A DNA stretch of 63,534 nt, counting the filler, from Collodictyon triciliatum (Eukaryota): assembly GCA_043381765.1 (NCBI GenBank). It is 8 parts of 8 records of this genome, joined end to end, with 100 filler letters (N's around TTAATTAATTAA, not from the genome) between each part and the next. Parts side by side here need not be neighbours in the genome. Positions count along the whole stretch, not along the records: positions 42,660 to 51,294 come from JBHJMP010003343.1; 7 more parts are not named here. The stretch is one strand, 5' to 3'. The notes beneath the pieces are model-generated. The model saw nothing but the letters and a program-made list of their open reading frames with translations. It was not told where the DNA came from and did not search any database. A program made the translations under genes and the position numbers. This document shows, one piece after another, positions 45,992 to 51,205 of the stretch (positions within the stretch are counted from its first letter, which is position 1; every line of letters starts with the position of its first letter).

Positions 45992-48900
45992 ATGGTGGCG
46001 ATCGCACATGCGCGAGCGGGGCTCCTAAGGCTAATGCTTGTATGCGTACTTGTATCCTCTCGCACAAGCGCCGCTCCAGCTGAACGGTTTATTTTGTGTA
46101 GTTTTGCTGTTTTTTTTTTCAATTTTATTGTTTTGTACGTTTTTTTTAATTATTTTATAATAGTCACTCAATATTCAGTCCATGAACTAAACAAATAGAG
46201 TTCCAGTTGGGTTTGTTAAAAGAAAAACAACACGTTTAGAGAACTGACCGCTCATCCCTGTGGGTATTCGCATCATGACTTGCTCGCTATGGAGAGAGAC
46301 GTCGCATTCCGCATCCTCCTCGATTTTTACAAACACTTTTGTCCTGTTAACTCATACACCAAGACGGAAGAGATAGCCATAGGCTTTGATTCCAAGTTGG
46401 ATGCACATGAGACAGACTGCTCAAATAATGTTACTCAAACCGCCCAAACTAATGGCAACGGAGATGGTATGTCACAAAAGCACCGCGAGTCTGTCAATAC
46501 TGATTTCTATCAACAATCAATAGAATCCAAAGGCTCCTTGCTCACCGCTTCCACTATCCATGATAGTAAAAATATAAACGGTTTCATGAGAAAAACAGCA
46601 CCCACAAAGAAAGCCTACCAAAATGAAAATCCAAAAATCGACTCTAAACATTCGGAAACTGTTTCAAATCATGTGCAGGGCCGAGATATTAAACACCAGA
46701 CCGATTCTCGTGAAACTCACAAGGACAGTCTCTTTCCGTTCAATCTTGATAATAGCGCAAGATTCATCACAGCACAAGACAATGCGTGCTTTCAAGCTTT
46801 CAATCAAACAAGCTTCTCATTTTTTCGTCAAAACTATGATAAAATCTATGTTTGTGTCGATGGGTATGTCTCGTTCGATGAACGCAACACTGGTAAAACG
46901 GACTTTACAATTCCTACCCAAGACTTTCCCATCATCGCTCCTTTTTGGACAGACATGGACACATCAGGCTCAAACAGCGAATCAGACGCAGCAAAGGTAT
47001 TCTATGAAGCTATTCCAACATTCTCAAACTACTCAGCTCAGTATGAATCCATCATCGCAGAAAGTGTGGATGGTCTGTCAAGTTTTCGAGCCTCACGCAT
47101 ATACTTGTTCACCTGGTATAAAGTTCAGGCCTGCTGCAACCAAGACAAAAAAGAGTACAACTCATTCCAACTGGCTATTGCGACAGACGAAGAGCTCTTT
47201 TTTATCATCTTCCGATACGCTGCCAATGGAATCGGCTGGACACAACCAACTAGTAACTCTCCACATGCGACTGCTGGAATCAACTGGGGTGACACACTCC
47301 ATTTCTACACCCTTCCATACAGCGGGACTCCGCATATAACCAAATTAAGCAAAGAGTCCAACACCAATCAACAGGGTGTGTGGTTGTATGAAAGCAACAG
47401 ACTTTTCAATCCTTACTTTGAGTTGATGAAGATATACTCGCAAGCAAGCGGAGAGTATTGGACAAATAGGTACGGCTGGGGCACAGATACACAAGTATGC
47501 CTGTGGCATGGAATCGAGTGCTATGGAGGGTGTTCAGATACGGACATATTGGAAAACACATGCCCTATAGTCAAGATAGACCTTTCATCAAATAACCTAG
47601 ATGGCACACTTGCAAACGCTGAGTTCCCTCTGCTTCAAGAGCTAAATCTCAGAAGCAACCATTTGAAAGGTGCTTTTCATCTATGAGTACATGTGATAAT
47701 TTTACGTTATAAAACTTAACTTACAAATAATGCTATTTTTTTTTGTCTTTTTGTCTTTTTGCCTTTTTGCCTTTTTCTTTTTGCCTCTATTTCTTCTTGC
47801 ATTAAACCAAATGAAATCCTGTGCAAATTATCAGGCAATATACCGAATTTCAATTATGGTTACCTGCAAGTCATTAATCTCCAAGAAAACCAATTCGCGG
47901 GTATATTCGAATCAAAAGCTTTGTTAAAGTATGAAATATCCCTTGACTTCTTTAATCTTAGGCCAGATTCCAAGCTTTGAATCAATGTCTTACATCACTG
48001 TTATGAACTTCAGCTTCAATATGCTTACCGGTAGTTTTCCATTTATGCTGTTTTGGATTCAAAAGCTTAATGGCGGAATTATTTATATTATTATTATTAT
48101 TTTCTATCTAGGCACTCTACCAATTTTTAGTCTGCCATACCTGCAAGATATGCAAGTTTATTCGAACGAAATTTCTGGTTTGTTTAGTGGATATTTCAAG
48201 AAGTATGAAATTTAGGAAGGCATGCTCCTCTAATCAAACTAATTATTGTAATACATATCACAGGAACTCTACCAAATTTTCAATACCCGCATCTTCGCAT
48301 CCTATCTCTTGATTCCAATAATTTTTTTGGTAAATTAAGTCTTATCGTGATTTTTGAAAAATATATGCATTAGCATCATTCCACTCCATGTGATTCATAT
48401 CATGACATTCTTACACCGATTTGCGTCGAAATAAAGGCACCATCCCTGACATTGACTCATCCAGTTTGATCGAATTGTTTCTAAACAATAACGATTTAGA
48501 AGGTTTTACATGTGATTTCATTAACTTATTTGCTTGACATGAAGTTATGATATATTGTTATATACTTTGTTTCTTTGAAAATAAAAATTAAATTATAGGA
48601 GATTTACGAAAAATACTCTATATCAATATCCTTTCAATCGACATAAGCTTTAACCAACTTACAGGTATCACATAAATTTCACATGATGCATACATATATC
48701 CATATATGATGATTGTTAGGCATTTTATCCTGATTTTTTTAATACAGGCACAATACCTGTTTTTGACTTTCCGCTGATCATACGTTTACAAATGTCGAAC
48801 AATAGATTGAGTGGTAAGACTGTGATTAGATAAATAATTGACTGTGAGAGACTTAATATCCAGATACGACAGAAATTCCTCACCTGCAAATGCCACCTTT

Positions 48901-51205
48901 TAAGAATAACCAATATCGATAGGACCTCTCCTTCAGCTTTATTGTCCACACTTGTCTTTATTCTCTCTAGGTTTCAATGAAGTGACAGGTTACTTATAGA
49001 ATCTTTTTTTTTTTTTAAAAAAAAAATTATTTTAATAAATATCATTTGGTGCTTTTCAAAATAACTTAAATGCCTCCTATTTAGGCTCCGTACCCAACTT
49101 TGAGAATTTGCCATCCTTACAAATCGTCATCGGAGAACAAAATATGTTTTCTGGTACTTGAAAAAATAATTAAAATTTAAAACATAGTTTCATGTCATTA
49201 TTGTGATTTCCCTTTAAATTCAAAAACTAAGCATGATCAGTAGTAGCAATAAGAACAATCAAAGTAGCTCATCGATGATTTCCCTAAATTCTGAGTCAAT
49301 ATTCCATACAGGACCAATACCTGATTTTTCTTATAATCCCGAGCTATATTTGATTAATTTGGCACACAATGAACTGAATGGTACTACCAAATGACTTACT
49401 GCCGGCCAATTTATATATTCTTGTAAATATTTAATGCATATTTATCTCTTCGCTGCAATTTTTGTTGCAATATTAATGAATCACAGGGACAATTCCTAAT
49501 TTTGGTAATTCAAGCTATATTGGACAGCTTTTTCTTGGATACAATCGTTTTGAAGGTTATTACCTTTTTTTACACAATGAAATCCACCAAAGTTCATGTA
49601 ATTTCAATAATAACTCGCATATGCAGGAACCCTGCCAAATTTTAGTTACACGCCTAGCATCGAATTCATATTTCTTGAAAGAAATCAGCTTGAAGGTAAA
49701 TCATAAATAAAACAATATCTTAGAGTTCCCTCTCATACAACAAAAATATATTGCAATTAGCTCTCACTGTTTTTATAATATTTTCTACAATCAAATGGAA
49801 ATTAATTTTTATTTCAAATTAAAGAACCGAATTCAATCTCACGTGAAATGGAGTTAAATAACACATATTTCATTTTTTTGAAGGTTCGCTCCCTGAGTTT
49901 GAATTCACACCTCTGGTCAGGAAGCTTGTCATTTCTTTTAACAATATATCGGGTTATTACTCAATTAACTATATCTATTACACTATTATATCATAATGAA
50001 TGGTTTATCATATATTAAGAGCTCGCCGTTTTGTAATTTATTCATACATGAAGGTACTCTTGATTCAGTTCAAAAATTATCTTTCTTGGATGAAATATGG
50101 ACCAATAACAATCAAATTGCTGGTATGTATTCCAATTTTATTTAACTGATTACTCTAATTTTTTTCCATTTTAGTTCAACAATTTAACTATTTCATAGGG
50201 ACTTTACCGGATTTTGAAACATCACCGATGCTTTCGACTTTGATCTTACATTCAAACAAGTTATTTGGTATTTTCTTCTAAAATGATTAAAAAAAAAAAA
50301 GGAAAGAAGTTTCTAATGACTTCAAAGTTTCCTTTTTAACTAGGAATATTCAATCAATATCCTTTTCATTAGGGACCATTCCTCTATTTAGAAATCTTAC
50401 AGCCCTTTATGATATTGTTATGTTCAATAACCAACTCTCTGGTAAACCTAAAATTCTGATTTTGATAACATTCCTTCGGTATTTCGTTCGACAATTTCAA
50501 ATGATTATTTAGCTATCCCCTCGCATGAAATCATTCATTGAAAATATTTTTTTTGAAAGGTTCAATCCCTTGGTTTACAAATGCAAACTTTCATGTATTA
50601 TGGCTTTACAACAATGAACTGAGTGGTAATTTATGTCTTTCATATTCAATATTTATCGTATAGGCCATGCTTTCATCCAGGCAAGTTTAAAAAAAAATTT
50701 TTCCTAAAATTTTTAGGTTCCATTCCCAATTTTGAGCTACCGGTACTTCGTCAGTTGATATTATCGAATAATCAACTTACAGGTATTCCAAATCAGATCA
50801 CATTTTTAAACATTCATAATCCGTTAGTCTTATAAATAACTATAAACACAAAAAAATATCATGACTCAGGAGAAATTCCTGTCTTTTCTTCTCTTCCTGC
50901 CATTCAGCGTATATCTTTGAACTTTAACAAATTAAGTGGTGAGCACTGCTGTACACAGCTCAATTCTTCTATTTATATTCAAAATCTATGTCATAAATTA
51001 TTCTATGGGATACAAATAAATCTATGCTGCTTAGAAATTTTGCCACTCATAAAAAGTAAATGCGTCAAATAGCATAGAAAAATAAAAGAAAACTCATTAT
51101 ATATCGAGTTCCAAAATAATTTACCAATATTATCAGGCACTGTACCGAATTTCAAGAATCTCGAAACCTTGCTTGTTCTCGAATTGAGTGGAAACAACCT
51201 ATCAG
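45992..51205 (+). CDS. Secreted or cell-surface NIDO + LRRNT + plant-type LRR protein, 3'-truncated
   Basis: Signal-peptide exon 45992-46086 splices in frame to exon 46240-47669. NIDO motifs IYVCVDGYVSF, IIAPFWTDMD, NSFQLAIATD, ATAGINWGD, SNTNQQGVW; LRRNT GEYWTNRYGW..CLWHGIEC; then 20 single-LRR exons (G.IP.F..L..L.L..N.L.G). Confidence 0.92.

Follow-up and report, generated by a model that had tools for sequence, protein, structure and literature searches.

Twenty frame-symmetric, single-repeat exons in a receptor-like LRR gene of Collodictyon triciliatum

The window analysed here, a 63.5-kb stretch (63,534 nt) of the Collodictyon triciliatum genome assembly, is a composite of 8 pieces with seven identical linkers, N44-TTAATTAATTAA-N44, between them. 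One piece of 8.6 kb carries the visible part of an LRR gene, which comprises 22 exons: a signal-peptide-like exon, an exon encoding a NIDO domain, a cap and two LRRs, and then 20 LRR cassettes. The features are listed below; scores are those of an HMM built from the cassettes.

45992 to 46086, + strand: exon 1, putative and read from the sequence; ATG and signal-peptide-like hydrophobic N-terminus, GT donor, phase 2
46087 to 46239, + strand: intron 1, 153 nt, GT..AG, phase 2
46240 to 47669, + strand: exon 2, 1430 nt; NIDO, Cys-rich LRR cap and two LRRs without an intron between them (Pfam, ORF)
47835 to 47900, + strand: LRR cassette exon 1, 66 nt, 29.5 bits
47962 to 48030, + strand: LRR cassette exon 2, 69 nt, 31.9 bits
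48112 to 48177, + strand: LRR cassette exon 3, 66 nt, 27.6 bits
48264 to 48329, + strand: LRR cassette exon 4, 66 nt, 33.1 bits
48437 to 48502, + strand: LRR cassette exon 5, 66 nt, 27.1 bits
48599 to 48664, + strand: LRR cassette exon 6, 66 nt, lacking the IPxF motif, 22.9 bits
48748 to 48813, + strand: LRR cassette exon 7, 66 nt, 31.1 bits
48923 to 48988, + strand: LRR cassette exon 8, 66 nt, lacking the IPxF motif, 25.1 bits
49085 to 49153, + strand: LRR cassette exon 9, 69 nt, 30.6 bits
49312 to 49380, + strand: LRR cassette exon 10, 69 nt, 31.8 bits
49487 to 49555, + strand: LRR cassette exon 11, 69 nt, 29.3 bits
49627 to 49695, + strand: LRR cassette exon 12, 69 nt, 36.5 bits
49884 to 49952, + strand: LRR cassette exon 13, 69 nt, 28.7 bits
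50054 to 50122, + strand: LRR cassette exon 14, 69 nt, lacking the IPxF motif, 26.3 bits
50199 to 50267, + strand: LRR cassette exon 15, 69 nt, 31.7 bits
50373 to 50441, + strand: LRR cassette exon 16, 69 nt, 29.7 bits
50560 to 50625, + strand: LRR cassette exon 17, 66 nt, 32.9 bits
50717 to 50782, + strand: LRR cassette exon 18, 66 nt, 32.7 bits
50870 to 50938, + strand: LRR cassette exon 19, 69 nt, 31.7 bits
51137 to 51205, + strand: LRR cassette exon 20, 69 nt, the last visible, 28.7 bits
51206 to 51294, + strand: opening part of the following intron, with its GT donor, reaching the piece end; the 3′ part of the gene lies outside the window
51295 to 51394, no strand: artificial linker N44-TTAATTAATTAA-N44, separating two unrelated pieces

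Because the window is made of joined pieces, the LRR gene is broken off at 51294, 89 nt past cassette exon 20; an HMM and homology scan of the piece beyond the linker found no LRR or membrane-module match. Spliced in silico, the two upstream exons and the 20 cassettes gave 959 codons free of stops. The frame stays open where the putative exon 1 joins exon 2, and a motif downstream of its signal-like stretch aligns with the N-termini of P0005 and P0007, two proteins of the CRuMs flagellate Diphylleia rotans.

The first-pass annotation had described 20 exons of 66 or 69 nt, from 47835-47900 through 51137-51205, each encoding one LRR and each split at a Gly codon. All 20 lie where it placed them (nine of 66 nt, eleven of 69 nt), and their frame symmetry is real: the flanking introns are in phase 1 in 20/20 cases and every length is a multiple of three. 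Each cassette is preceded by AG, begins and ends with G, and is followed by GT (20/20), and the split codon encodes Gly at every boundary (G/GC in 7, G/GA in 6, G/GT in 4 and G/GG in 3). The introns measure 61-198 nt, with a median of 101 nt; intron 1, in phase 2, is the only one of the 21 in this gene that is not in phase 1. In each cassette we found one plant-type LRR of 22-23 residues, with the repeat consensus G-T-[IL]-P-x-F-x-x-(x)-P-x-L-x-x-L-x-L-x-x-N-x-L-x. The G and N are invariant in all 20 cassettes, the P is present in 17 of them and the L positions are hydrophobic, which is the core of the plant-specific type of extracellular LRR. The contrast that had been drawn between a constant scaffold and variable xLxLxx positions also stands, with an entropy of 2.7-3.3 bits at the x positions against 0-2.0 bits at the scaffold; the quoted segments QVINLQEN, TVMNFSFN, RILSLDSN and HVLWLYNN occur in cassette exons 1, 2, 4 and 17. 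Such variability is common to every LRR protein, however, and does not serve as a sign of diversification. A strict cassette regex, run over both strands, had 18 matches in the window, every one among the 20 exons, and zero in 79 unrelated loci (934,753 nt, both strands), while the cassette HMM recovered all 20 exons at 22.9-36.5 bits, the next-best match in the window scoring 10.7 bits. Together these results indicate that the array is not due to chance. Single exons score below threshold in Pfam (LRR_8, E 0.012 and 0.15).

The product of exon 2 contains a NIDO domain (Pfam PF06119) at residues 184-368, with an E-value of 9e-34 and 117.5 bits against a gathering cut-off of 25. A putative Cys cap, CLWHGIEC...C...C, is readable in the same exon; Pfam LRRNT_2 has no match in the window protein at E <= 1, but does match the D. 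rotans homologues. The visible LRRs number 22, two unsplit in exon 2 and 20 in the cassettes, and there are 10 N-x-S/T sequons. Pfam found no ROC-COR GTPase domain in the visible 959 residues or in the homologues. The earlier reading of a surface-receptor-like LRR gene agrees with these features, together with the signal-peptide-like exon and the presence of a membrane module in the homologues, and we infer that the product is located at the cell surface. A putative signal peptide followed by NIDO, the Cys cap and 22 or more plant-type LRRs would make it a receptor-like or adhesion-like membrane protein. From homology to D. rotans, the Cys-rich DUF7630 stalk probably follows beyond the piece end, and with it a multi-pass membrane module.

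The closest relatives of the window gene are D. rotans transcripts, represented by EukProt Trinity proteins (P0005, P0007/P0156, P0009/P0158, P0016 and others), at 33-39% identity. Matches to P0005, P0007 and P0009 by phmmer had E-values of 1e-134 to 5e-55, and a 911-residue spliced product aligned end to end with P0007 and P0156 by blastp (33% over 784 columns, E 4e-137). The window gene and these relatives are collinear from the N-terminal motif through NIDO and the Cys cap to the GTIPxF-type LRRs of 22-23 residues. No D. rotans member reaches 50% identity to the window gene, and therefore none is the same gene. Compared unit by unit, the window gene and P0156 showed no positional orthology; conservation of order between these two is therefore unproven. 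The relatives consist of a NIDO or FG-GAP domain, LRRNT_2, LRRs (LRR_1, LRR_4 and LRR_8 pass in Pfam), a Cys-rich DUF7630 stalk and a multi-pass membrane module. The fold of this module had no clear match, and PF06011 (TRP) scored above its cut-off in P0184 (30.9 vs 28.5 bits). Our literature search found no description of a family combining NIDO or FG-GAP, LRRs, DUF7630 and multiple transmembrane segments, and the family appears so far to be undescribed. The window gene represents a receptor architecture (NIDO, LRRs and probably the DUF7630 stalk and multi-pass module) that is new to the literature we searched.

The age of the array can be read from its copies. Across the 190 exon pairs, nucleotide identity has a mean of 0.443 and a maximum of 0.591, and third-position identity is 0.307 where 0.282 is expected by chance. 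Pooled pS is 0.788, and pS is at least 0.75 in 119 of the 190 pairs, indicating synonymous saturation. Matches between introns are confined to low-complexity stretches of 12-20 nt, TRF detected no tandem repetition of the array at the DNA level, and there are no recent exon copies within it. Both first-pass suggestions, introns that were not copied from one another and old duplications, are borne out by these values. At the first boundary in the cassette register, inside exon 2, the intron is absent; the array therefore resembles a series of copies of a single exon-intron unit placed after an undivided start. We consider it likely, with a probability of roughly three in four, that the array is the main part of a ligand-binding ectodomain and a fossil of old tandem duplication, and that it is spliced constitutively. 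A phase 1-1 exon would have been duplicated long ago in tandem together with its intron, the copies then diverging in place, and the exon-per-repeat layout would be a fossil of that growth. Judging from relatives 33-39% identical, constitutive splicing, one intron at a time, is the most likely mode for the cassettes, and their frame symmetry would mean that a cassette can on rare occasions be gained, lost or replaced in evolution without harm.

A different origin of the layout, in which every repeat acquired its own intron at a G/G proto-splice site after the LRR array existed, would account for introns without common sequence, for the G/G at every split site and for the first two LRRs lacking an intron between them. 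It nevertheless requires twenty gains at an identical codon position and phase, which is far less parsimonious than duplication of a unit followed by intron divergence. Six retention-like ends in D. rotans proteins (P0155, P0160, P0196, P0198, P0199 and P0205, from five genes) fall exactly at the LRR Gly, which points to an intron at the same position in the relatives, and the published brown-algal type I exons have this position as well; we regard independent gain as highly improbable. A single gene could also give rise to many receptor variants if different sets of its LRR exons were skipped, in a regulated or a stochastic way. Each of the 20 exons is phase 1-1 with a length divisible by three, so that any subset is removable in frame, one LRR is one structural turn, and alternative use of LRR exons has been reported in Ectocarpus ROCO genes (PMC11378527) and human NLRP3 (PMC6642158). 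Frame symmetry, however, is a precondition for a working combinatorial system and not evidence of one. No skipped LRR, seen as an in-frame deletion, occurred in 29 isoform comparisons (42 proteins of 13 homologous D. rotans Trinity genes), a sample of short-read assemblies in which rare isoforms can be missed and of clusters at 90% identity that may hold fewer than all isoforms; the variation consists instead of intron retention and truncation. Extra alternative cassettes at or near a locus are the mark of Dscam-type exclusive exon clusters or VLR-type donor arrays. There is no added LRR-coding segment in the 8.6-kb piece or the remaining window. The introns are also short, a condition that favours intron definition. 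Outside bilaterians, exon skipping is described as rare in the account we drew on (PMC6142364), and the absence of LRR skipping and the retention at Gly in D. rotans fit that description. For this gene we judge combinatorial skipping to be very unlikely.

Change on an evolutionary time scale is another candidate. Under ongoing exon shuffling in the style of Ectocarpus ROCO genes, cassettes would undergo duplication, inversion, exchange between paralogues and loss, all at a high rate, and the LRR domains of the family would be rearranged within short evolutionary times. The register found here is that of the Ectocarpus type I LRR exon as described, GxxPxxLxxxxxLxxLxLxxNxLx with the same codon split (PMC3341825, PMC11378527), the window gene is longer than P0156 by one whole LRR unit over the aligned span, and between P0016 and P0161 on one side and P0162 on the other a single cassette is exactly replaced, from Gly to Gly (22 vs 23 residues). 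Yet HMM and regex searches of both strands found no spare, relic, inactivated or antisense LRR exons in the locus, where matches besides the 20 exons stayed at or below 1.2 bits, except for an LRR in exon 2 (7.4 bits), and the minus strand had none. Synonymous sites are saturated here, whereas dS in Ectocarpus is given as well below 2. Among 231 units (14 D. rotans genes and the window; 26,557 pairs) no near-identical cassette recurs in another gene or position, the maximum identity being 0.71, and the best-matching units between D. rotans paralogues run consecutively (for example, DN7972 175 and 197 vs DN1873 820 and 842). For the cassettes swapped between P0016 and P0162, no donor above 0.52 identity exists among the sampled units. 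Ectocarpus LRR-kinases with type I exons are likewise described as unshuffled, and the layout is thus no proof of shuffling by itself; we think ongoing shuffling unlikely. The P0016/P0162 swap is the only hint of cassette-level variation in the family. It hints at a further reading, in which single LRR exons are exchanged as units in this Diphylleia-like family, and frame symmetry is kept for receptor diversification; such exchange could arise through splicing in which alternative cassettes exclude one another, or through the replacement of exon-sized stretches between alleles or between paralogues. We think this reading unlikely. All available tests of shuffling and skipping are negative here. 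Of the combinatorial receptor proposed at first pass, the frame symmetry and the receptor-like gene remain; its skipping or shuffling finds no support, with no spare exons in the locus, no recent copies, 0/29 skips in the D. rotans comparisons and no recurring cassette among the 231 units. Frame-symmetric repeat exons alone, we caution, do not indicate a combinatorial receptor.

Exon-per-LRR arrays are already known from brown algae, Tetrahymena and human NLR genes, and the window gene adds a clean example from a poorly sampled branch of eukaryotes. The one-exon-per-LRR layout that had been named at first pass for brown-algal ROCO genes is confirmed by two accounts (Zambounis et al. 2012, PMC3341825; Teng et al. 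2024, PMC11378527), which place type I LRR exons in ROCO, some LRR-kinase and other LRR genes. As described there, the Ectocarpus type I exon resembles ours in encoding one plant-type LRR, from the Gly of GxxP to after NxLx, and in being frame-symmetric, with two leading bases that complete the split codon and one trailing base that opens the next; Teng et al. name this split 'phase 2', where we name it phase 1. The Ectocarpus exons measure 72 nt, in contrast to 66/69 nt here, and the ROCO proteins are cytosolic LRR-ROC-COR GTPases whereas the present gene encodes a putatively secreted NIDO-LRR ectodomain. Unlike Ectocarpus ROCO genes, the array also has no relic or antisense exons, its copies are saturated at synonymous sites and no alternative LRR transcripts were seen in its relatives. 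Brown algae are, moreover, a different lineage, the nearest relatives of the window gene being in D. rotans. The shared register and codon split raise the question of whether this intron position is ancient in plant-type LRRs or recurrent.

Tetrahymena LRR genes are reported to contain arrays of exactly 90-bp exons with phase 2 introns, which Xiong et al. (2019, PMC6564038) trace to the duplication and shuffling of exons. As in the window gene, a protist carries long runs of LRR exons that are equal in length and frame-symmetric, but the exons described there number tens of thousands, and many are young and retrotransposon-associated, whereas here there is a single old 66/69-nt phase 1 array. 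Human NLRP3 (Hoss et al. 2019, PMC6642158) shares the strict modularity of LRR exons, described as a precondition for in-frame alternative splicing; human NLRs are cytosolic receptors with another LRR class, and skipping has been experimentally shown in them, which is not the case here.

In plants, one LRR per exon is also the layout of the ERECTA and SERK receptor genes. The best solved-structure matches to the LRR part of the D. rotans family profile were GSO1 (E 1.4e-84), MIK2, FLS2, ERL1/2 and BRI1. Plant LRR receptor kinases have the LxxLxLxxNxLxGxIP motif in common with the window gene, and the Cys motif of exon 2 resembles their CxWxGxxC-type cap, but their repeats have 24 residues where ours have 22-23, and the window gene carries an N-terminal NIDO domain. 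At the membrane end, the D. rotans relatives have a multi-pass module, in contrast to the single helix and kinase of the plant receptors. The multi-pass module of the relatives is also present in the window on another gene, at 9527-10990 on the minus strand.

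The first-pass annotation had described 20 consecutive frame-symmetric exons, each encoding one LRR, and had read them as a possible combinatorial surface receptor diversified by exon skipping or shuffling. All 20 exons are present where it had placed them, from 47835-47900 to 51137-51205 (+), within the piece at 42660-51294; nine are 66 nt long and eleven 69 nt. The frame symmetry also holds: each exon has the form AG|G...G|GT, with a split glycine codon (G|GC in 7, G|GA in 6, G|GT in 4 and G|GG in 3), and every flanking intron (median 101 nt, range 61-198 nt) is phase 1. Each exon encodes a single LRR of the pattern G-T-[IL]-P-x-F-x-x-(x)-P-x-L-x-x-L-x-L-x-x-N-x-L-x, in which the G and N are invariant. 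A strict cassette scan of the window returned 18 matches, every one among the 20 exons, with none in the rest of the window on either strand; 79 unrelated loci totalling 934,753 nt gave no match. A cassette HMM scored 22.9-36.5 bits on the 20 exons and at most 10.7 bits on anything else. The cassette pattern is far above chance level. The variable xLxLxx residues on a constant scaffold are present as well, but such variation is common to any LRR protein.

The 81-nt intron between cassettes 2 and 3 (48031-48111) is a multiple of three without an in-frame stop, and its retention would add 27 residues rather than cut the protein short. Two others, of 61 and 71 nt, likewise lack in-frame stops, but their retention would shift the frame.

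Ahead of the cassettes lies a long frame (46220-47686) that encodes a NIDO domain (PF06119, E 9e-34), followed by a Cys-rich cap and then by two LRRs without an intron between them. The resulting gene model comprises 22 exons and an open frame of 959 codons with zero stops; of its 10 N-x-S/T sequons, 7 fall in the LRR part. Its first exon, with the putative signal peptide, was predicted and is directly followed by a 153-nt GT..AG intron. The window is a composite in which seven identical linkers (44 N, TTAATTAATTAA, 44 N) separate eight pieces of ~3.4-8.6 kb each, so features cannot be read across linkers and genes at piece ends are cut.

45992-46086, + strand: predicted upstream exon, based on the DNA and the relatives' N-termini, with a signal-peptide-like hydrophobic start
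8650-8749, 17389-17488, 25070-25169, 33823-33922, 42560-42659, 51295-51394, 60029-60128: linkers

After the last LRR exon there is a GT donor and then just 89 nt to the piece end, so the window lacks the 3' end of the gene; the following piece opens with a microsatellite (51395-51512, (ACTCTC)n, ~20 copies), which is followed by an unrelated gene. Two further microsatellites lie upstream of the LRR gene (44168-44338, (ACACAT)n, ~28 copies) and within the intron preceding cassette 1 (47740-47786, (TTTTTGCC)n, ~6 copies). A tRNA-Pro(AGG) sits on the opposite strand at 45614-45685 (-), 306 nt upstream of the predicted start codon.

To place the gene among its relatives, we compared the protein encoded by exon 2 (46240..47669, +) with 1.84 billion representatives in a full HMMER scan. 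Among the 1124 matches at E <= 0.001, the combination of NIDO, cap and LRRs was found only in P0005, P0007 and P0009 (35-39% identity), which are Trinity transcripts of Diphylleia rotans from EukProt; the other leading matches were NIDO proteins of animals or unnamed LRR proteins from metagenomes. No match in this collection reached 50% identity or more, and the gene and close orthologues are therefore absent from it. A word-index search for longer relatives gave three weak NIDO matches only, and a first scan of metagenome loci found no relatives. A metagenome profile scan yielded 79 loci that matched through NIDO alone (24-39% identity) and carried no LRR cassette. The spliced window product is collinear with P0007 and P0156 (33% over 784 columns, E 4e-137), apart from one whole LRR unit. 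Matched one by one against the units of P0156, the window cassettes had best partners that followed no diagonal, and we make no claim of positional orthology at that level.

The D. rotans proteins consist of a signal peptide, a NIDO domain or, in some, FG-GAP repeats, an LRRNT-type cap, many LRRs of 22-23 residues, a Cys-rich DUF7630 stalk and a multi-pass membrane module. Across 231 LRR units from 14 D. rotans genes and the window, 163 are 22 and 59 are 23 residues long. Of three members tested, only P0184 passed the cut-off for PF06011 (TRP), with 30.9 vs 28.5 bits. Another piece of the window holds an intron-less 1153-residue ORF (9497-12958, -) with WD40 propellers at residues 30-609, followed by a DUF7630 Cys-rich segment (E 1.3e-5) and then by a multi-pass module that shares homology with the C-terminal region of the D. 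rotans LRR family (tblastn E 5e-12). The membrane module of the LRR family thus also sits behind a quite different N-terminal domain, and this organism possesses it; judging from these homologies, the LRR gene plausibly ends in the same module. The product is most likely an LRR solenoid, secreted or anchored in the membrane, that follows a NIDO domain, and the solenoid probably forms the portion of a receptor or adhesion protein that binds the ligand.

When the LRR part of the family was searched as a profile against solved structures, the best matches were ectodomains of plant LRR receptor kinases (GSO1, E 1.4e-84). Matches of 0.81-0.89 in the ESM Atlas to LRR/DUF7630 and Ephrin_rec_like/TRP clusters serve as leads only. 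An AF2 model of P0184 from a 14-sequence alignment averaged a pLDDT of 63.6; most of the membrane module, residues 198-533, scored 65-90. Searches of solved structures gave this module no clear counterpart (best Foldseek E 0.04); the best VIA hits (Z 6.3) were unrelated helical proteins, and no fold was assigned.

Does this layout diversify the receptor? The best-described parallel is the ROCO family of the brown alga Ectocarpus, in which each 72-nt exon encodes one LRR in the register GxxPxxLxxxxxLxxLxLxxNxLx, introns contain relic and antisense LRR exons, young exon copies have dS well below 2, and exon number varies between paralogues (PMC3341825); later work reports alternative transcripts with differing LRR combinations (PMC11378527). 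The window cassettes share the register and codon split of these type I exons, but the hallmarks of shuffling looked for in the DNA of the array are absent. Neither the strict scan nor the HMM found relic, spare or antisense cassettes in the locus. Nucleotide identity between exons averages 0.443 and peaks at 0.591 (190 pairs), third positions are at chance (0.307 vs 0.282 expected), and pS reaches 0.788 when pooled, with 119 of the 190 pairs at 0.75 or higher. The introns match one another only over low-complexity runs of 12-20 nt, and TRF detected no repeat across the array. With its exons saturated, its introns unrelated and no relics, the array is old and has long been quiet, in agreement with the old duplications proposed by the first-pass annotation. 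The layout alone implies nothing about shuffling, since Ectocarpus LRR-kinases with type I exons are also described without it (PMC3341825).

We then looked for cassette skipping in D. rotans, using Trinity isoforms from the 90%-identity clusters that contain its homologues (42 proteins, 13 genes; 29 comparisons with the longest isoform as reference). In-frame loss of an LRR unit occurred in 0 of the 29 comparisons, which draw on short-read assemblies, on clusters that may omit isoforms and on relatives just 33-39% identical to the window gene. What the isoforms did show was truncation at the 5' end, substitutions and block differences that are scattered and allele-like, and retention-like ends. 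Such ends fall within the membrane module in P0009, P0007, P0038, P0046 and P0060, and exactly after or before the LRR glycine in P0155, P0160, P0196, P0198, P0199 and P0205 (five genes). The latter six fit a retained phase 1 intron (G|GT...AG|G), and these protein sequences suggest that this intron position is shared throughout the family.

One difference involves a single cassette. Among the TRINITY_DN3242 isoforms, P0162 differs from P0016 and P0161 by an exact replacement from glycine to glycine (22 vs 23 residues) in otherwise near-identical proteins, which could reflect mutually exclusive exons or a second allele or paralogue. Two linked point differences in the next two LRRs lead us to favour an allele or paralogue over pure alternative splicing, and block differences outside the LRRs in other genes (P0005 vs P0154; P0011 vs P0178) point in the same direction. 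Neither swapped cassette had a donor above 0.52 identity among the 231 units. In all 26,557 pairs of these units, none recurred above 0.71 identity in another gene or position, and the best pairs between paralogues ran in consecutive order.

The array probably grew as a single phase 1-1 exon and its intron underwent tandem duplication, and long divergence followed. With introns this short, splicing errors would be expected as intron retention rather than exon skipping, which agrees with the D. rotans isoforms and with a 65-eukaryote survey that reports high exon skipping in bilaterians only (PMC6142364). Frame symmetry still lets single cassettes be gained, lost or replaced now and then in evolution, as in the D. 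rotans swap and in the single LRR unit that separates the window gene from P0156. The exons are real, but a combinatorial or shuffled receptor is unsupported by any test that could be run: no relic cassettes lie in the locus, the exons are saturated, no LRR skips were seen among the D. rotans isoforms and no unit recurs above 0.71 identity.

Exon-per-LRR arrays with symmetric phases are also described in brown algae (PMC3341825, PMC11378527) and human NLR genes (PMC6642158), in both cases with receptor diversification already in print; Tetrahymena has arrays of 90-bp phase 2 exons (PMC6564038), whereas those here are 66/69 nt and phase 1. What is new is the lineage and the protein family, and we regard the finding as a real exon-per-LRR array of modest significance. 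Literature searches turned up no work on a collodictyonid NIDO-LRR family (for the protist NIDO domain, among the matches listed) or on DUF7630, and nothing relevant on Collodictyon with LRR; PMC13091385 mentions neither Diphylleia nor exons. A 2026 preprint (10.64898/2026.06.11.730069) describes genomes of Collodictyon triciliatum and D. rotans obtained from single cells, so decisive tests are now feasible.

Elsewhere in the window, a long ORF at 51649-54387 (+) encodes a Q-rich N-terminus and a protein kinase domain, with no relatives by word-index search, and another at 37550-42559 (-) encodes a 1669-residue WD40 protein with Sel1 repeats at its end. Both are intron-less, in contrast to the intron-dense LRR array.
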